Origin: Actinomycetota bacterium
Lineage (GTDB): Bacteria; Actinomycetota; Actinomycetes; S36-B12
Direction of reading: 5' to 3'
DNA length: 64,000 nucleotides
Assembly (NCBI GenBank): GCA_016870195.1
Contig: VGCC01000005.1
Location: 19,126 to 83,125, forward strand
Notes under the pieces: generated by a model
The model's input: the letters and a program-made list of their open reading frames with translations, nothing else
Databases searched by the model: none
Told to the model about the DNA's origin: nothing
Translations under genes and position numbers: made by a program
In this document: positions 36,422 to 62,828 of the stretch, piece by piece
Layout of the letters: the number at the start of each line of letters is the position of its first letter
How positions within the stretch are numbered: position 1 is the first letter of the stretch

Positions 36422-36448
36422 GGTCTTCCCACTGTATCCAGGCCCGAT

Positions 36449-36483
36449 TTGCGTACATCTCGATTTACGCAACAATATTGTTG
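36449..36483 (+). promoter_or_regulatory. putative sufR/suf operon promoter overlapped by a SufR-type operator
   Basis: The promoter has -35 TTGCGT (36449-54), an 18-nt spacer and -10 CAATAT (36473-78). The perfect palindrome CAACAATATTGTTG (36470-83) equals CAAC-N6-GTTG, the motif reported for cyanobacterial SufR. It ends on the GTG start, so the transcript is probably leaderless. Confidence 0.55.
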
Positions 36484-37142
36484 TGAAATTCCCCGGTGAA
36501 GCCGCCGAGCGGGTGGCGCGGAGCCTGCTGGAGTTGGGTCCCGCGACGGCTGCGGAGGTTGCCTCGCGCCTGGGGATGTCGGCCGCAGCTGTTCGGAGAC
36601 CGTTGGCCGCGCTGGCTGTTTCCGGCCTCGTGGAAGCGACCGACGAGGCGCCCTACGGCCCACGTGCGCGGCGCGGTCGCGGTCGGCCAAGCAAGGTCTT
36701 CTCCCTCACCCAGGATGGTCGCGCGGCATGCGATCAGGCCTACGACGATCTGGCCCTCGCCGCGTTGCGTTTTCTTGCCGACACCCAAGGGCGTGCGGCC
36801 GTCGCGGAATTCGCCGCACGTCGCGCCCGGTCGGTCGTCGGCAGCGGCACCCAGTCCATCGATGCCGTGGTCCAGCGCCTCGACGCCGCCGGGTTCGCGG
36901 CAGAGTCGAGCAGCCTCGCGTCGGGTCAACACCAGCTCTGCCAGCACCACTGTCCTGTGGTGGATGCAGCGCGTGAGTTCCCCGAGCTCTGTGACGCCGA
37001 GGCGGAGGCCATCGCCCAGGCCCTGGGTCGCCACGTCACTCGATTGGCCACGCTGGCGCAGGGTGACGGAGTGTGCACCGCACTCATCGGTCCATCGATC
37101 CACAGTCCGACATCCCCGTCCCGAGGAAAGGTTTCGGCATGA
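36483..37142 (+). CDS. sufR: SufR-like winged-HTH (ArsR/DeoR-type) Fe-S-sensing repressor of the suf operon
   Basis: The N-terminal HTH reads [27 protein letters not shown]. The C-terminal Cys cluster is C-x12-C-x13-C-x14-C (CQHHCP...ELCDAE...VCT). It lies directly upstream of sufB, with an ATGA overlap. Confidence 0.82.
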
Positions 37143-57342: not shown

Positions 57343-57903
57343 ATGTTCGAAGGGCAGCGTGACGGCCAAGAGAGCCTGTTCGATGCGGGGAGCCTCCGTC
57401 CGATTCCCGATCATGTCGGCTACCGCGGTCCGGTCGCGTGCGCGGCGGCCGGGATCACCTACCGGCAGCTCGATTACTGGGCGCGGACCGGCCTCGTGGA
57501 GCCCACGGTGCGCGGCGCCTCCGGTTCGGGCTCACAGCGTCTTTATAGTTTCCGTGATGTGCTGACCCTGCGGATCGTCAAGCGACTGATCGACACCGGT
57601 GTGTCCCTGCCCAACATCCGTGCAGCGATCGCCCACTTGGGCACTAGCGACGGCAGCGACCTTGCCAGCCTCACATTGATGAGCGACGGAGCGAGCGTGT
57701 ACGAATGTCGCAGCGCAGACGAGGTGGTCGACCTCGTTCGCGGCGGGCAGGGAGTTTTCGGGATCGCTGTGGGATCGGTCTGGCGAGAGGTGGAGGGGAC
57801 GCTCGCGACCCTTCCCGCCGAGGATCCAGCGGGGGAGCCAGTTGTGCCCGTCGAAGTCACCGATGAGTTGGCGCGCCGCCGGGCGAGCCGGGCTGCGGTC
57901 TGA
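57343..57903 (+). CDS. MerR family transcriptional regulator (Rv1830-like)
   Basis: It shows [46 protein letters not shown]. Confidence 0.88.
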
Positions 57904-57939
57904 ACGGATTCGGCTAGACTTAGCTCGCTGCTTGAACCC

Positions 57940-58125
57940 GGGCGGGAGAGAACTGCACCAGCAGTCGCCGAAGGAGCAATCTCCCCGACAACCTCTCAGG
58001 CACAGGGACCGTCCGGGTAAGGCACCTCTGGAAGGCGAGACTTTGGTCTCCACCGACGGGGAAAGCCGCGAATGCGGTGAAACTCTCAGGTCGCGCAGTG
58101 CGCGGGCAACAGAGGGGGAGTGGTT
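57940..58125 (+). promoter_or_regulatory. tandem glycine riboswitch (two aptamers) controlling gcvP
   Basis: Aptamer 1 shows GGGAGAG...TCGCCGAAGGAGCAA...CTCTCAGGCACAGGGAC. Aptamer 2 shows CTCTGGAAGG...CCACCGACGGGGAAAGCC...CTCTCAGG...AACAGAGG. These match the GGAGAG / CACCGAAGGGGCAA / CUCAGG-GGAC glycine-aptamer consensus blocks. Confidence 0.85.
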
Positions 58126-58147
58126 GCCCCCTGCCCGAGAGGTGAAC

Positions 58148-60979
58148 ATGGAATTCGTCGGTCGTCACATAGGTCCACGTGATGCGGATGTCATCGACAT
58201 GGCACAGCAACTCGGTTTCGAAGATGCCGACGCACTCATCGCGGCGGTCGTTCCCGAGGTCATCGCCTGGACGAGCGGACTCGATCTCCCCGCGCCCCTC
58301 TCGGAGCCCGAGGTCACCAGGCGCCTCCGCGAGCTCGCATCAGCCAACACCGTCACGGTCCCGATGATCGGGCTCGGCTACTACGCCAGCCACACGCCGG
58401 CTGTCATCCGACGCACCGTGCTCGAAAACCCCGCTTGGTACACGGCGTACACCCCGTACCAGCCGGAGATCTCCCAGGGCCGGCTCGAGGCCCTCCTCAA
58501 CTTTCAGACCCTCGTCGAGGACTTGACAGCGTTGCCCATCGCCGGATCGAGCCTGTTGGACGAGCCCACTGCAGTGGCCGAGGCGATGGCCCTGGCGGTG
58601 CGCTCCACTGGGCGCGACCGGCTGCTGGTCGACTGTGATGCCCATCCTCAGACTCTCGCCGTGCTCAGCACCCGAGCGGAGCCGATCGGGGTGGAGATCG
58701 TGGTCGCGGATCTTGCAGGGCAGGGGCCCGCAGGTGAGTTCGCCGGCGTTGTGGTCGGCTATCCGGGGAGTTCCGGGCAGATCCGTGACATCCGCGAGGT
58801 GATCGCCCTGGCCCGCGATGGCGGTGCGTTGGCCATCGTGACCACGGATCTCCTCGCCCTCACCCTGCTCACCCCACCGGGGGAGTGGGGGGCGGACATC
58901 GTGGTGGGTTCCGCCCAACGCCTCGGTGTGCCGATGGGCTTCGGGGGACCCCATGCGGGTTTCATTGCCGTGCGGGCCGGGCTCGAGCGAAGCCTGCCCG
59001 GGCGCCTGGTTGGGGTCAGCGTCGATGCCGACGGGGCACCGGCGTACCGCCTGGCCCTGCAGACCCGCGAGCAGCACATCCGCAGGGAGAAGGCCACGAG
59101 CAACATCTGCACGGCCCAGGTTCTCCTCGCCGTCATGGCGAGCATGTACGCGGTCTACCACGGGCCCGAGGGACTCACCGCGATCGCGCAACGAGTCGCG
59201 CAGTCCGCCAGCAGGCTGGGGGAGGCCCTGAGCTCGGCGGGATTCGCGCTCGTTCACGATGACTACTTCGACACGCTTCATGTGCACGCGCCCGGCCGGG
59301 CGCGCGAATTGTGGGAAGCATGCCGGTCGAGGGGAATCACGTTGCGGCTGGTCGACGCTGACACCATCGGAATCAGCGTCGATGAGACCACCACGGCGGA
59401 GCATGTGGCCGTGGTTGCGGACGTGTTCGGTGCGCAGATCGGTGCTGCCGAGCACACAGCGATTCCGATTGAGCTGACGCGTACGTCGCCGTTCCTGACG
59501 CATCCTGTTTTCCATCAGCACCGTAGTGAGACATCCATGTTGCGCTACATCCGTCGTCTCTCCGATCGCGATGTGGCCCTCGACCGGTCGATGATCCCGT
59601 TGGGCTCCTGCACGATGAAGTTGAATGCAGCGACGGAGATGGAGCCGGTCACGTGGATGGAATTTGCGCACATGCATCCATTCGCACCGCTGGAGGACTC
59701 GGCCGGATATCGGGAAATGATCCGGGACCTCGAGGCGTGGCTCTGCGAGGTCACCGGGTACGACGCGATCTCACTGCAGCCGAATGCCGGTTCGCAGGGC
59801 GAGTTTGCAGGATTGCTTGCGATCCGCGGATATCACCGTTCACGTGGTGATGATCAGCGGGATGTCTGTCTGATTCCCAGCAGCGCACACGGCACGAATG
59901 CTGCAAGTGCGGTCATGGTGGGGATGACGGTTGTGGTCGTGCAGTGCGACGAGCAGGGGAATGTCGATGTCGCCGATCTTCAGGTCAAGATCGATGCGCA
60001 CGCTGATCGGCTTGCTGCGCTGATGATCACCTATCCATCGACTCACGGGGTCTTCGAAGAGGCTGTCGCGGACATCTGTGCGCGCGTCCACGCTGCAGGC
60101 GGGCAGGTGTATGTCGATGGTGCCAACCTCAACGCGCTCGTTGGACTTGCGAAGCCCGGCGCATTCGGCGCGGACGTCTCGCACCTGAACCTGCACAAGA
60201 CGTTCTGCATCCCCCATGGCGGCGGGGGACCGGGGGTGGGTCCCGTGGGGGTGCGCGCCCACCTGGCGCCGTTCCTCCCCGGGCACCCGTTGGTGCCGGA
60301 GGCCGGTCCGATGGGCCGCGGTCACATCAACGGCGGAGTGGGTCCCGTGAGCGGAGCGCCCTGGGGGAGCGCCGGAATCCTTCCGATTCCCTACGCCTAC
60401 ATCGCGATGATGGGGGGAGAGGGCCTGACCCGTGCGACCACGGTGGCCATCCTGAACGCCAACTACGTCGCGCACCGGCTACGCGACCACTACCCGATCC
60501 TGTACGCCGGTGATCGCGGGCTGGTGGCCCACGAGTGCATCCTGGACATTCGACCCATCACGGCTCGATCCGGCATCTCGGTCGATGACATCGCCAAGCG
60601 GCTCATCGACTATGGCTTCCATGCTCCGACGATGAGCTTCCCGGTCGCAGGGACCCTGATGGTGGAGCCGACCGAGAGCGAGGACCGCGCGGAGCTGGAC
60701 CGCTTCTGCGACGCCATGATCGCGATCCGGGGGGAGATCGCCCGGGTGGAATCGGGTGAATGGCCGGCGGATGACAATCCCCTGGTTCACGCCCCGCATA
60801 CCGCCGCGAGTGTCGTCGGGTCCTGGTCGCACCCGTACAGCGCTTCGGAGGCGGCCTTTCCGGGGACGGTGAACCCTGCGGACAAGTACTGGCCTCCGGT
60901 GCGGCGCATTGACGGTGCCTACGGGGATCGGAACCTGGTCTGTTCCTGCCCGCGGCCTGAGGAACTCGCCGCCACATAG
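58148..60979 (+). CDS. gcvP: glycine dehydrogenase (aminomethyl-transferring), P protein, single-chain
   Basis: It begins [10 protein letters not shown], shows SNICTAQ and the PLP lysine context [19 protein letters not shown]. The upstream track-ORF extension covers the riboswitch and is rejected. Confidence 0.97.
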
Positions 60980-60990
60980 CCTGGGGTGTC

Positions 60991-61020
60991 ATTGCGTAGT
61001 ATTGATCAACTACGTAATAT
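60991..61020 (+). promoter_or_regulatory. AT-rich promoter plus 10-8-10 inverted repeat upstream of the recombinase gene
   Basis: The promoter has -35 TTGCGT (60992-97), a 17-nt spacer and -10 TAATAT (61015-20), with the ATG at 61030, so the transcript is probably leaderless. The inverted-repeat arms ATTGCGTAGT (60991-61000) and ACTACGTAAT (61009-18) match at 9/10 positions around the spacer ATTGATCA. Confidence 0.5.
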
Positions 61021-61029
61021 CATTGGGGC

Positions 61030-62061
61030 ATGGTGGCTCCTCCCACGCTCCAGCGGCTCACCGTGGCCGAGGCGGTCCAGCGCTATTTCAGGGACGTGGA
61101 GCGACGACTGGCGGCCGGATCCCTGGCGGAGACGACGGCACGGACCTACCGACGCGACCTGGACGACCTCATCCGCCTGGCCGGCGCCGACACCGTTCTG
61201 GACGATCTGACAGGTGCCGATATCGACGACATCGTGGTGGCGTTCCGGCACGAACCCGACCGGCGCTATGCCGTCCCTCGGACCGACACCAAGGGCACCG
61301 GTATCGCCGCCCGGTTTCGGCAGTCCATCTCCCGGTTGTTCACCTTCGCCGAGCGCGAGGCCTACATCCAACGCAACCCCATGCCGGACACGAGCGCCCG
61401 ACCCAAGCCTCGGGATCGGGCAGCCGGGGCCCGCACCGCACTCCCCCTGGACTCGGCGCGCGCCCTCGTCGACGTGCCGCAGGATCCCCCGACGGCACGT
61501 GTCGACCACCGGCTCTCGGTGCGCGACGAGGTGATCCTGCGCATCCTCTTGGAGACCGGGCCGCGGGTCAGCGAGCTGTGCGCGATGGACAGGGCAGATG
61601 TCGACGTCCGCGACGGTGTGACCTGGTTACGGATCCGACATGGAAAGGGTGGCAAGGCCCGGGATGTGCCGCTGTCACCGAGCACCGCGGAAGTGTTGAG
61701 CCGCTACGAAGCCGACCATCGCCCCCCTGCCTGGCATGCCGATCCCCCGCCGCGTCAGGAAGACTCGGAGCGCGCGCTCTTCGTCACCTTCCGAGGGCGT
61801 CGAATCACCCCGCGTGATGTCCAGAATCTCGTCTCACGCACATGTGCGCTCCTCCCCGCGCAGGTGCGCAGGCGCGCAACACCCCACGCACTGCGGCACA
61901 CGATGGCCACACTTGCGCTCTCCAGTGGCGCGGCCGATGTGTCCGTTGTCCAACGCCTCCTCGGTCACGCGAGCCTGGCGACCACCGGCGTATACCTGGA
62001 CGAGATCCGCGAGGAGCTGGCCCAGGCGGTCCTGCGCAATCCGGTAACCGGACGCACCTAG
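61030..62061 (+). CDS. tyrosine recombinase / site-specific integrase (XerC/XerD-like)
   Basis: The N-terminal SAM-like domain shows TYRRDLDDLIRLAG. The catalytic residues are R (ETGPRVSEL), K (HGKGGKARDVPL), HALRHT, LLGHASLATT and the Tyr in GVYLDE. Confidence 0.9.
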   Translation: MVAPPTLQRLTVAEAVQRYFRDVERRLAAGSLAETTARTYRRDLDDLIRLAGADTVLDDLTGADIDDIVVAFRHEPDRRYAVPRTDTKGTGIAARFRQSISRLFTFAEREAYIQRNPMPDTSARPKPRDRAAGARTALPLDSARALVDVPQDPPTARVDHRLSVRDEVILRILLETGPRVSELCAMDRADVDVRDGVTWLRIRHGKGGKARDVPLSPSTAEVLSRYEADHRPPAWHADPPPRQEDSERALFVTFRGRRITPRDVQNLVSRTCALLPAQVRRRATPHALRHTMATLALSSGAADVSVVQRLLGHASLATTGVYLDEIREELAQAVLRNPVTGRT

Positions 62062-62075
62062 GGAACCTTCCGGCG

Positions 62076-62103
62076 GCCTCCTGCGTCCCATCCCCCAGGA
62101 GGC
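62076..62103 (+). promoter_or_regulatory. hairpin that sequesters the rbpA Shine-Dalgarno (could also terminate the recombinase transcript)
   Basis: GCCTCCTG (62076-83) pairs with CAGGAGGC (62096-103) to form 8 bp with a 12-nt loop. The 3' arm contains the AGGAGG located 5 nt upstream of ATG 62108. Confidence 0.35.
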
Positions 62104-62107
62104 AGTC

Positions 62108-62449
62108 ATGGAATCGATGCGTGGAAGCCGTCTCGGGGCCTTGAGTTACGAGCGGGATGAGCACGTTGCTCCCGCGGGGCGACGCGGTGTGCGCTACGTC
62201 TGCGCGGACGGCCACGTCAGCATCATCCCGTTCTCCACGGACGCCGACGAGATCCCCTACACCTGGACGTGCCGGTGCGGTGCGGAGGCAACAAGCCCCG
62301 ACGTCGCGAAGCCCGAGGCCGGTCCGGAGAAGCACCAGCGGACGCACTGGGACATGTTGCTCGAACGCCGGACACGCGAGGACCTCGAGGAGCTGCTCGA
62401 AGAGCGTCTCACGCTCCTCCGCCAGGGAGCTCTCCCCCGCTCTGCGTAG
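62108..62449 (+). CDS. rbpA: RNA polymerase-binding protein RbpA
   Basis: It shows RGSRLGALSYERDE and the tail RTHWDMLLERRTREDLEELLEERLTLLR, closely matching the mycobacterial/Streptomyces RbpA pattern. It neighbours fxsA and ppm1, as Rv2050 does. Confidence 0.92.
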   Translation: MESMRGSRLGALSYERDEHVAPAGRRGVRYVCADGHVSIIPFSTDADEIPYTWTCRCGAEATSPDVAKPEAGPEKHQRTHWDMLLERRTREDLEELLEERLTLLRQGALPRSA

Positions 62450-62828
62450 TCGGCCGACGGATCACCTCACCGGCGATCACGTCACCCGCAGCGAAACCCA
62501 TGCGAATCGGTGACACCTGCACCCACGCCCGCAAGCGCGTCCCTAAGGGCCGGTGCACGGCCGGCACCAGGAGCACGAGGGCCGCGAGGTCGGTCAGAAA
62601 GCCGGGGACGATGAAGAGCACGCCGGCAACACCGAGGACGAGGGCCCGATCACCCCTCCCCCGCGCTGCCTCAGCCCCCGCATTGCGGACCAGGGCCCAG
62701 CCGACGGGCACGCCGAGGACTATGAGCAGGAGCGCCCATCCCCAGCCGAGAAGCGTGGCGACGCCCCAGAACGCGAGGATCTCGGCGAGCGGGTAGCCAA
62801 AAACCAGCAGCCGCCAACGGACGTTCAT
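62409..62828 (-). CDS. fxsA: FxsA family membrane protein
   Basis: It shows the FxsA pattern PLAEILAFWGV...LFIVPGFLTDLAALVLLVP. Its 3' end overlaps rbpA by 41 nt. Confidence 0.88.
   Translation of the reverse strand: MNVRWRLLVFGYPLAEILAFWGVATLLGWGWALLLIVLGVPVGWALVRNAGAEAARGRGDRALVLGVAGVLFIVPGFLTDLAALVLLVPAVHRPLGTRLRAWVQVSPIRMGFAAGDVIAGEVIRRPTTQSGGELPGGGA

Follow-up and report, generated by a model that had tools for sequence, protein, structure and literature searches.

A Xer-like tyrosine recombinase gene and a linked 28-bp inverted repeat at a probable actinobacterial replication terminus

The recombinase gene, its upstream repeat and the surrounding locus

By virtue of its position between gcvP and rbpA, a lone recombinase gene stands at the meeting point of two gene blocks in the window, that is, the whole 64,000-nucleotide stretch of actinobacterial DNA that was analysed. 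No further tyrosine recombinase was found in the window, which takes in the suf, fabG/inhA and gcv regions. The features of the locus are as follows.

57863..60979, + strand: gcvP, glycine dehydrogenase (PF02347/PF21478 on the identical metagenome contig L081)
60991..61000, + strand: left arm of the inverted repeat, ATTGCGTAGT, read from the window (consensus ATTRCGYAGT in seven lineages)
60992..60997 and 61015..61020, + strand: TTGCGT and TAATAT, 17 nt apart, the -35 and -10 hexamers proposed in the earlier note for the ATG at 61030
61001..61008, + strand: asymmetric 8-bp spacer ATTGATCA, putative crossover region, from the window sequence and lineage comparison
61009..61018, + strand: right arm of the inverted repeat, ACTACGTAAT, read from the window
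61018..61023, + strand: probable -10 hexamer TATCAT, 6 nt before the A of the ATG, predicted by comparison
61030..62061, + strand: Xer-like tyrosine recombinase, 343 aa (PF00589, E 3e-31)
62076..62103, + strand: GC-rich hairpin GCCTCCTGCG-N8-CCCAGGAGGC between the recombinase gene and rbpA, kept in lineage L001
62108..62449, + strand: rbpA, opening the right flank rbpA-fxsA-ppm1-lnt (PF13397 on L081)
60000..62500, no strand: switch of GC skew and gene orientation, probable replication terminus, from skew bins and gene strands

On the left, the block gcvH-FHA/garA-MerR-BFN-MerR-gcvP ends with the gcvP stop codon at 60977-60979. On the right, the hairpin at 62076..62103 is a boundary feature outside the recombinase site; its right arm holds AGGAGG, the Shine-Dalgarno sequence of rbpA. 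Both the base composition and the layout of genes change across this locus. With the window extended by contig L101, GC skew runs from +0.04 to +0.10 over 48-60 kb and is negative in all 2-kb bins from 60 to 70 kb, and genes to the left of the locus are mainly on the + strand, those to the right mainly on the - strand. No change of skew sign occurs at the repeat on the related contigs L100 (21 kb), L087 and L089, which are short and come from a group with weak skew.

The 28 bp from 60991 to 61018, ATTGCGTAGT-ATTGATCA-ACTACGTAAT, have a 10-8-10 geometry and span -39 to -12 relative to the start codon. Re-reading of the window bore out the earlier note on the coordinates, the sequence and the complementarity of the arms, which is 9/10 and becomes 11/14 on extension. 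The intergenic spacer that holds the repeat had been called the most AT-rich stretch; at a GC fraction of 0.40 it is indeed the top 50-mer, a rank that it shares with 36441-36490. The 8-bp spacer, in which the earlier note pointed out a GATC, reads ATTGTTCA in L001, and three further lineages have ATTGGTCA. Since GATC is not kept among lineages, any significance of Dam methylation sites was dropped. The form ATTGnTCA is found in 5/7 freshwater-clade lineages, and Micrococcales sites have the similar spacers ATTGTACA and ATGGTACA, in constant orientation relative to the gene.

Taken by itself, the repeat is not beyond chance, since 11 repeats of 10-8-10 geometry with a match of at least 9/10 occur in the 64-kb window; its significance comes from its conservation at orthologous loci. 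The full pattern has no further match in the window at up to three mismatches (0 expected), and a second copy was found neither by a half-site matrix in any related locus examined nor by a covariance model in 1.1 Mb. An exact scan across a metagenome collection, which did not return contigs of the window's own organism, gave six matches, gene-linked only in L095; those in L094 and L096-L099 are likely due to chance, given their differing GC or gene content. Viral contigs gave 0 matches to the pattern.

The product of the gene is a complete R-K-HxxR-H-Y recombinase, as had been proposed: PF00589 is accompanied by a weak SAM-like N-terminal domain, no arm-binding domain is found, and R179, K206, H286-x-x-R289, H313 and Y322 show no variation among 25 homologues. 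Since the N-terminus MVAPP is conserved, the start codon at 61030 is fixed. The two insertions noted earlier turn out to be small, amounting to ~9, 5 and 5 residues when set against E. coli XerD, together with N- and C-terminal extensions. Among solved structures, E. coli XerD is its best relative (1a0p, E 1e-22). Orthology to XerC or XerD would, according to the earlier note, count against its own reading; with 145 bits on the XerC model TIGR02224 (cut-off 335) and 134 bits on the XerD model TIGR02225 (cut-off 330), the protein is an orthologue of neither. Its own orthologues L002, L004 and L010 score 106-133 bits on these models, and genuine actinobacterial XerC/XerD proteins from control loci score 296-340 bits. 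Orthology to XerS (67 bits on NF003462, cut-off 267) and to XerH (structure 5jjv, E 7e-7 over the catalytic domain only) fails as well. The family is distinct from XerC, XerD, XerS, XerH and XerA, and the protein is by prediction a simple, arm-less, complete Xer-like recombinase.

The recombinase gene tree agrees with taxonomy. Searches of 50,697 phage and 72,556 plasmid records returned no close homologues, the best matches being XerC/D-level (33% at most), and no phage genes accompany the recombinase, just as the earlier note had observed. A prophage or ICE integrase was therefore rejected, there being no arm-binding domain, phage genes, second site or mobile-element relatives.

The promoter was earlier described as near-consensus and its transcript as leaderless. 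The first description is overstated, as the two hexamers match at 7/12 positions and a consensus scan did not report them. The second fares better with a different hexamer. In 6/6 distinct repeat-type loci, TAnnnT lies exactly at -12..-7 from the start codon; the equivalents of TATCAT are TATTCT (L086), TAGAAT (L087), TAATGT (L089) and TAGAGT (L100). While the repeat is shifted by 2 nt in some loci, the register of TAnnnT is unchanged. Since it is conserved at a fixed distance, TATCAT supports a leaderless mRNA better than the hexamers first proposed, and the recombinase mRNA is, on this comparison, probably leaderless. Control by LexA was dropped, TCGAAC-N4-GTTCGA being absent upstream of the gene.

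Conservation of the repeat, canonical dif and a DNA-damage promoter

Among close relatives, seven lineages with 59-100% protein identity (the window, L001, L086, L087/88, L089, L095 and L100) share the consensus ATTRCGYAGT-N8-ACTRCGYAAT, placed 11-13 nt ahead of the start codon. Their flanks differ, with four neighbourhoods in all, and include gcvP, a CBASS/SMODS gene and a Tad/T2SSE block; between L089 and L100 both flanks are retained and the repeat-plus-gene cassette is inverted. Since the repeat is kept across the seven lineages despite differing flanks, it travels with the recombinase gene. Of the explanations first put forward, a self-regulated, Xer-like single-recombinase/site module is the one favoured by the repeat-gene linkage, the recurring geometry and the terminus-like locus. 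Two marks of such a module, a simple Xer-like enzyme and a dif-like repeat genetically linked to its gene, are present.

Orthologues with 37-47% identity extend to the Micrococcales and Streptosporangiales. The 10-8-10 geometry reappears in Micrococcales as ACCAKTGTGT-N8-ACACnnTGGT, in Sanguibacter with intermediate arms as ACTACGTTGT-N8-AGAACGTAGT, and in Streptosporangiales as ACCAGACAGA-N8-TCTGTCTGGT. Over 23 sites, the arms are complementary at 89% of positions with changes on both sides at 8/10 positions, and their covariation score is 0.64 compared to 0.22 when shuffled and at most 0.22 when slid, pair statistics that are partly circular in that sites in other orders came from an inverted-repeat search. 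Homology of the sites between orders is suggested, though not proven, by geometry, by position and by half-site similarity that forms a gradient. The covariance model places exactly one site at each family locus and, at E <1, none in ~0.6 Mb of control XerC/XerD loci.

Canonical dif, of the Frankia type CCGATAATGnnCATTATGTCA (PMC3025954), precedes the gene in 18 loci (17 by scan plus Nonomuraea L104). The distance is 0.6-2.5 kb in Micrococcales, and in Streptosporangiales it is 0.9-6 kb. Between the two comes the repeat, which in the ten Micrococcales loci with dif in reach is separated from dif by 460-640 bp. In some Streptosporangiales it is ~4 kb from the gene and is thus tied to the gene more loosely than to dif. 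The cumulative-skew extremum of the Streptosporangiales falls at or near the dif-repeat interval, as in Nonomuraea L104, where skew changes from -0.27 to +0.31. No conserved gene or RNA was found between dif and the repeat, the ~500 bp being unalignable across genera. At the repeat-type loci there is no canonical dif, nor is there one in 71 kb around the window's gene, where the maximum is at most 12 bits on a dif matrix that gives true sites 34-50.

In Oerskovia and Xylanimonas, the orthologue is flanked by FHA/garA-MerR-BFN-MerR and by rbpA-lnt, and canonical dif lies between these blocks. Since these are the two blocks that flank the gene in the window, the junction appears to be old and to match the terminus. 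The suggestion that the locus is left over from a rearrangement joining the blocks is accordingly without support.

The consensus published for PafBC is tGTCgg(N10)tA(N3)T (PMC8635444). A strict form, GTCRG[TA]G-N8-TAnnnT, has 23 matches in 666 kb strand-bases, 21 of them no more than 100 nt upstream of the recombinase gene. It is present in 21/25 distant orthologous loci, often in a leaderless configuration. The motif occurs neither upstream of the window's gene nor elsewhere in the 64 kb; where TAnnnT would be expected, N10 downstream of TGTCAT at 60987, the sequence is TGATCA. Two loci (L085 and L105) have neither the repeat, nor dif within reach, nor the PafBC motif, and L093, with neither repeat nor dif within reach, has a PafBC-like sequence with one mismatch. 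In the part of the literature covered, no paper puts a tyrosine recombinase in the PafBC regulon and no dif-linked third Xer is described in Actinobacteria.

The repeat as a candidate core site and rival readings

Collectively, these observations point to the repeat as the recombinase's own core site, in a XerS/difSL-like terminus module. In the window the site would be fused to a leaderless promoter, and by binding there the recombinase would auto-repress its gene as well; we consider this reading slightly likelier right than wrong. Gene and repeat would then form an undescribed, widely conserved actinobacterial terminus module, usually beside dif and behind a DNA-damage promoter, which may untangle sister chromosomes as a second system or as a replacement.

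As to mechanism, we infer that the recombinase, as a member of an unnamed Xer-like family anchored at the actinobacterial replication terminus, binds the 28-bp 10-8-10 repeat as its cognate core site. Two protomers would occupy the two arms, two sister copies of the site would enter synapsis, and strand exchange over the asymmetric 8-bp spacer would produce a terminus crossover that resolves or unlinks sister chromosomes, comparable to XerS at difSL. In most lineages, the site would operate a few hundred bp from the dif of XerCD, with the gene under a PafBC DNA-damage promoter. In the freshwater lineage, the PafBC motif and the adjoining canonical dif would have been lost and the site merged with the gene's leaderless promoter, where the bound recombinase would keep its own gene from being transcribed.

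A broader version of this proposal is tentative and, on balance, probably claims too much. It holds that many Actinobacteria possess a second, damage-inducible terminus system, in which a third recombinase of the Xer-like kind, acting at a 28-bp 10-8-10 site of its own a few hundred bp from dif, adds sister crossovers when recombinational repair makes dimers, and that the streamlined freshwater lineage lost PafBC control, became auto-regulated and replaced XerCD/dif. The core-site reading itself has points against it. Since canonical dif, and hence XerCD, is present in most lineages, a second resolution system looks redundant. Furthermore, a different terminus protein could be the binder of the repeat, given the looser linkage to the gene in some Streptosporangiales.

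It is unlikely, though well within reason, that the repeat is a mere operator for a separate transcription factor and that the recombinase acts elsewhere. Such a factor might be a homodimeric DNA-damage regulator that replaced PafBC, its site having its centre near -26, as does the PafBC element. The repeat does cover -39 to -12 of a promoter without a -35 element, in near-constant register with the conserved -10 at all repeat-type loci, and relatives have an activator-dependent promoter at the same gene; within the freshwater clade, a pure operator fits this fixed register equally well. The lack of another copy in the 64 kb or in related loci counts both ways, as there is no partner repeat for recombination and no further repeat for a separate regulator. 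Against the operator stand the repeats of Micrococcales and Streptosporangiales, which coexist with an intact PafBC promoter from 30 nt to 4 kb upstream and are nearer to dif than to the gene. Since they are so placed, regulating the PafBC promoter is not their conserved job there. The arms also turn over in step with the recombinase, whereas operators of conserved regulators, the PafBC element among them, are constant across the same lineages. A quite improbable reading would make the repeat the place where an integron-like or island-capturing system attaches or inserts DNA, with a damage-induced integrase adding or removing foreign DNA beside it. The DNA on the repeat-distal side varies by lineage (gcvP, CBASS, a Tad block, type I R-M plus HigBA), and the dif-repeat interval is unconserved, measuring 0.36-4.2 kb and containing unrelated inserted genes, but variable DNA is to be expected at any terminus. 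Integron integrases are under SOS control, which damage-inducible expression recalls; the protein, however, scores 60 bits on the integron-integrase model TIGR02249 (cut-off 265) and 44 bits on NF011946 (cut-off 435), and is an orthologue under neither. Each locus has one site with no attC-like repeats and no cassette array, close relatives are absent from phage, plasmid and viral collections, and the gene tree tracks taxonomy in a locus that is syntenic between the window and Micrococcales.

The compensatory changes of the arms, several of whose mismatches are G-U on the + strand, and a + strand fold of -13.8 kcal/mol (z = -3.1) would also suit an RNA hairpin, either a gcvP terminator or a 5' structure of the recombinase mRNA, in place of protein-binding DNA. 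This is very improbable. In L089, two mismatches are A-C on the + strand and the sequence folds like its shuffles (z = -0.96), and in L087, L089 and L100 the repeat is not downstream of gcvP. No U-tract follows the repeat and no terminator was called, and a gcvP terminator was dropped for want of that U-tract. The -10 conserved at -12..-7 puts the repeat upstream of the transcript, and an Rfam search gave no match. In Micrococcales the outer positions decay and the inner GTGT/ACAC is retained, a pattern that marks sites bound by protein.

Chromosome dimer resolution is ascribed to XerCD/dif in nearly all bacteria, with XerS, XerH and XerA as the known exceptions. If the repeat is a core site, the present family would add a fourth recombinase/site family to these exceptions, one that normally sits beside dif and does not replace it, and the actinobacterial PafBC damage response would be directly tied to chromosome segregation. 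The lineages would offer a natural series for the displacement of one system by another, from dif plus a second site to the second site alone, fused to a promoter. The co-varying arms in four lineages may be ready specificity variants of a small arm-less recombinase, with practical value for genome engineering. Should the repeat prove to be a mere operator, a conserved, dif-linked and damage-regulated recombinase would still have come to light.

Comparison with known recombinase systems

Cre/loxP and Flp/FRT combine inverted arms around an asymmetric 8-bp spacer with one recombinase species. They have no sequence relationship with the present system past a shared superfamily, and their 13-bp arms in a plasmid or phage context differ from the 10-bp arms at a chromosomal terminus here.

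XerC/XerD share with the present recombinase a simple two-domain tyrosine recombinase fold with a full catalytic set, a 28-bp site and a probable location at the terminus, in relatives right beside dif. The sites themselves differ: 9/28 positions are shared with canonical actinobacterial dif in the better orientation and 7/28 in the other (19 and 21 mismatches), and the central region is 8 bp here and 6 bp in dif. The symmetric arms of the repeat suggest that one protein binds rather than a heterodimer. Unlike xerC and xerD, which are unlinked, the recombinase gene here is linked to its site. Turning to the PafBC (RecA-NDp) regulon, the Micrococcales and Streptosporangiales orthologues carry tGTCgg-N10-TAnnnT directly upstream, whereas the window's gene is without the motif.

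The closest parallels are XerS/difSL of streptococci and lactococci and XerH/difH of Helicobacter and Campylobacter, where a lone recombinase of ~350 aa lies beside its own dif-like terminus site, much as is proposed here. Proximity of the site to the gene has been called a hallmark of single-recombinase Xer systems (PMC5357621). In the case of XerS, difSL is directly upstream of xerS and has been proposed as part of its promoter, so that there too the site is just upstream of the coding sequence and maybe within the promoter (PMC1914069). That site-gene pair is also self-contained among neighbours that are otherwise unconserved (PMC1914069, PMC5357621). As for differences, difSL is 31 bp, whereas the site here is 10-8-10 and nearly symmetric. 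Compared to XerS and XerH, the module proposed here mostly coexists with a canonical dif and does not replace it and, where it does so coexist, has its gene under a DNA-damage promoter.

The recombinase and its upstream repeat

The end of gcvP, the spacer behind it, the inverted repeat and the recombinase ORF all have the coordinates and sequence that the earlier note described, and the repeat arms, read from the sequence, are complementary at nine of ten positions. The features of this locus are as follows.

gcvP end, 60979, followed by a 50-nt spacer and then the recombinase ORF
Left arm, 60991-61000, ATTGCGTAGT
Central 8 bp, between the left and right arms, ATTGATCA
Right arm, 61009-61018, ACTACGTAAT
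Recombinase ORF, 61030-62061 (+)
GC-rich hairpin, 62076-62103, between the recombinase gene and rbpA, GCCTCCTGCG-N8-CCCAGGAGGC

The encoded protein matches PF00589 (E 3e-31) and carries the complete R-K-HxxR-H-Y set expected of it, with R179, K206, H286-x-x-R289, H313 and Y322 invariant across 25 homologues. Its N-terminus, MVAPP, is also conserved among homologues, which fixes the start codon. On the NCBIfam models, the protein scores 145 bits for XerC, 134 for XerD and 126 for XerA (cut-offs of 335, 330 and 220); three distant orthologues score 106-133 bits on the XerC/XerD models, where true actinobacterial XerC and XerD, taken from control loci, reach 296-340 bits. Among solved structures, E. 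coli XerD is the nearest (1a0p, E 1e-22); compared with it, the insertions previously noted are real but small at about 9, 5 and 5 residues, plus terminal extensions. No close relatives were found among 50,697 phage and 72,556 plasmid records, where the best matches are at the level of XerC/D (at most 33% identity). From these scores, catalytic residues, structural match and phage and plasmid searches, the protein is a complete, arm-less, Xer-like recombinase of a family separate from XerC, XerD, XerS, XerH and XerA. No second tyrosine recombinase gene lies within the window.

Taken by itself, the repeat is not beyond chance, since the window holds eleven 10-8-10 repeats with at least 9/10 matching; no further copy of its full pattern occurs in the window at up to 3 mismatches (expected 0). 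Among close relatives, orthologues at 90, 84, 76, 64 and 59% identity have the same repeat 11-13 nt ahead of the start codon. A metagenome scan added another gene-linked repeat (L095), and a locus identical to that of the window is present on several lake metagenome contigs.

Repeats upstream of the recombinase gene in related loci
L001: ATTGCGTAGT-attgttca-ACTACGTAAT
L086: ATTGCGTAGT-attggtca-ACTACGCAGT
L087/88: ATTACGTAGT-acctgcaa-ACTGCGTAAT
L089: ATTACGCAGT-attggtca-ACTACGCAAT
L100: ATTACGTAGT-attggtca-ACTGCGTAAT

The flanks are gcvP and rbpA in the window, L001 and L086; CBASS nucleotidyltransferase, YaaC and NYN genes in L087; and a Tad/T2SSE block in L089 and L100. Between these last two, the repeat-plus-gene cassette is in opposite orientations (L089, 2958-4152; L100, 9958-11023) although the Tad/T2SSE block to one side of it and a further gene block to the other are both conserved.

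In every repeat-type locus, TAnnnT lies exactly at -12 to -7 from the start codon (TATCAT, TATCAT, TATTCT, TAGAAT, TAATGT, TAGAGT), and this register is kept even where the repeat is displaced by 2 nt. Together with the absence of a Shine-Dalgarno sequence, it supports the leaderless transcript suggested earlier, relative to which the repeat would span -39 to -12 or -41 to -14. The promoter once called near-consensus (TTGCGT-17 nt-TAATAT) is present but agrees with only 7 of 12 consensus positions and goes unreported by a consensus scan, and the spacer GATC is not kept across repeat-type loci.

The gcvP-recombinase spacer does have the lowest GC content among 50-mers of the window (0.40), as had been noticed by eye, but is tied with 36441-36490. 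This second stretch, located between divergent genes ahead of the suf operon (where Pfam identifies sufB, sufC and sufS), carries a perfect palindrome, CAACAATATTGTTG, and the inverted repeat TTGCGTA-N10-TACGCAA, which are probably a regulator operator and, at a guess, one of SufR type. It has the heptamer TTGCGTA in common with the recombinase repeat at a different spacing. Downstream of the recombinase gene, the 62076-62103 hairpin has a left arm (CCTCC) that pairs with AGGAGG, the Shine-Dalgarno sequence of rbpA 5 nt ahead of its ATG; the hairpin could terminate the recombinase transcript, control rbpA translation, or do both. L001 has kept the hairpin; L086 and Oerskovia lack it.

Distant orthologues, dif and DNA-damage promoters

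A scan of one genome per species gave orthologues at 37-47% identity in Micrococcales (Sanguibacter, Oerskovia, Cellulosimicrobium, Xylanimonas and others) and Streptosporangiales (Nonomuraea, Actinomadura, Microbispora and others). PafBC, which activates the DNA-damage response of mycobacteria and actinobacteria (PMC6789036, PMC8635444), has the consensus tGTCgg(N10)tA(N3)T (PMC8635444). Its strict form, GTCRG[TA]G-N8-TAnnnT, matches 23 times in 666 kb strand-bases, with 21 of these at most 100 nt upstream of the recombinase gene on the same strand; the window has no PafBC motif. A Frankia-type dif, CACGCCGATAATGCACATTATGTCAAGT (quoted in PMC3025954), lies with intact core upstream of the gene in 17 loci and in Nonomuraea (L104), at 0.6-2.5 kb in Micrococcales and 0.9-6 kb in Streptosporangiales. 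L104 (NZ_LT559118.1), a PLSDB 'plasmid', is a circular 11.85-Mb replicon of Nonomuraea gerenzanensis and evidently its chromosome; the entire record is annotated with only 10 features, and the recombinase match is unannotated. The locus stands at 54.8% of this record, where GC skew passes from -0.27 to +0.31, and in the remaining Streptosporangiales loci with marked skew the cumulative-skew extremum is at or close to the dif-repeat interval.

Between dif and the recombinase gene, these orthologues have a 10-8-10 repeat with lineage-specific arms. The Sanguibacter recombinase is the cultured protein most similar to that of the window.

Repeats between dif and the recombinase gene
Micrococcales (ten loci): ACCAKTGTGT-N8-ACACnnTGGT
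Sanguibacter (arms intermediate toward those of the window): ACTACGTTGT-N8-AGAACGTAGT
Streptosporangiales (seven loci): ACCAGACAGA-N8-TCTGTCTGGT

Where dif is in reach in Micrococcales (ten loci), 460-640 bp separate it from the repeat, and this holds even with 1-2 kb inserted between repeat and gene. The dif-repeat interval has no DNA conservation and no conserved ORF, and in some Streptosporangiales it has received ordinary genes. The repeat spacers are asymmetric, never reversed with respect to the gene, and alike (ATTGnTCA in the freshwater clade of the window versus ATTGTACA and ATGGTACA in Micrococcales). In a set of 23 sites, complementarity holds at 89% of arm positions, and both arms have changed at 8 of 10 positions. 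Covariation scores 0.64 in this set, compared with 0.22 after shuffling and no more than 0.22 in slid controls, a partly circular comparison as the sites were picked as inverted repeats. A covariance model built from them finds one site per family locus and, in about 0.6 Mb of control XerC/XerD loci, no match at E <1. That dyad symmetry is kept through such sequence turnover argues for a homodimeric binder of the repeat.

More conserved bases border the Micrococcales repeat (L003, L005, L006, L013, L090 and L092; alignment A2, columns 790-863), with GATTCGGACATA about 9 nt upstream and TGACATAA about 5 nt downstream, whose reverse complement, TTATGTCA, equals the XerD-arm core of dif. These may be extra half-sites or part of a larger composite site. 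The module is not universal in the recombinase family, since the repeat and canonical dif are both missing, within 6-10 kb, from L085 (protein P0009, 61% identity), L105 (P0056, 48%) and L093 (Carbonactinospora, 46%). The PafBC motif is also absent from L085 and L105; L093 has a one-mismatch form, TGTCGG-N10-TCGAAT, and its gene is at 9% of the chromosome coordinate.

The window locus as a probable terminus position

The synteny junction of the earlier note proves to be an old one, at the spot occupied by dif in relatives. The window order is FHA, MerR, BFN, MerR, gcvP, repeat, recombinase(+), rbpA(+), fxsA, ppm1, lnt(-), and that of Oerskovia, flipped, is FHA, MerR, BFN, MerR, ..., PLD(-), recombinase(-), repeat, dif, island, rbpA(+), lnt(-), with Xylanimonas similar; relative to the MerR-BFN block, the recombinase cassette of the window is inverted. 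GC skew is positive over 58 kb of the window; after extension with L101, all 2-kb bins between 60 and 70 kb are negative, and gene orientation switches where the skew does. With no canonical dif in the 71 kb of window and extension, the repeat thus occupies the position expected for a terminus site. In M. tuberculosis, the gcvB and rbpA blocks presumably lie on opposite sides of the terminus region, which would explain their apparent unlinkage there.

Defence or mobile genes directly adjoin the module in L087 (252-1532 and 3129-5003, carrying a CBASS SMODS gene, YaaC and NYN), and in Oerskovia (L090, 3778-7885) Fic, a phage-type integrase and patatin lie between rbpA and dif. A type I restriction system and HigBA adjoin the locus of another homologue (P0028). 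The terminus module appears to be located in a hotspot for foreign DNA.

A putative cognate site and its alternatives

Judged from sequence, the repeat is best read as the putative cognate core site of the recombinase, in a terminus module of the XerS/difSL kind. The recombinase is the sole gene always linked to the repeat, whose 10-8-10 geometry and asymmetric spacer are the architecture of tyrosine-recombinase core sites. Proximity of the site to the gene has been called a hallmark of Xer systems with a single recombinase (PMC5357621), and difSL, immediately upstream of xerS, has been suggested to belong to the xerS promoter (PMC1914069). Since the site overlaps the core promoter in the window clade, its occupancy should repress the recombinase gene there. 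In the other lineages, expression would respond to DNA damage, a sensible arrangement if the enzyme handles dimers from recombinational repair. The anatomy of the module is solid; its function we infer wholly.

An operator for a separate regulator is unlikely: lineages that have retained the PafBC promoter carry repeats of the same geometry next to dif and at a distance from that promoter. Variable DNA adjoining the repeat would also fit an integron-like capture site, but each locus has one site, cassette repeats are absent and the recombinase lacks similarity to integron integrases, which makes this improbable. Least credible is an RNA hairpin: the repeat lies upstream of the inferred start and has no U-tract, L089 has A-C mismatches, and the outer arm positions decay while the inner ones do not.

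In literature of incomplete coverage, we found neither a dif-linked third Xer-like recombinase in Actinobacteria nor a tyrosine recombinase in the PafBC regulon, and the family-wide pattern of recombinase, repeat and dif is surprising. Compared with known single-recombinase dif-like modules, most lineages here differ in that the module coexists with canonical dif under a damage promoter, while the window's version is unusual in being fused to a probably leaderless promoter with dif not nearby.
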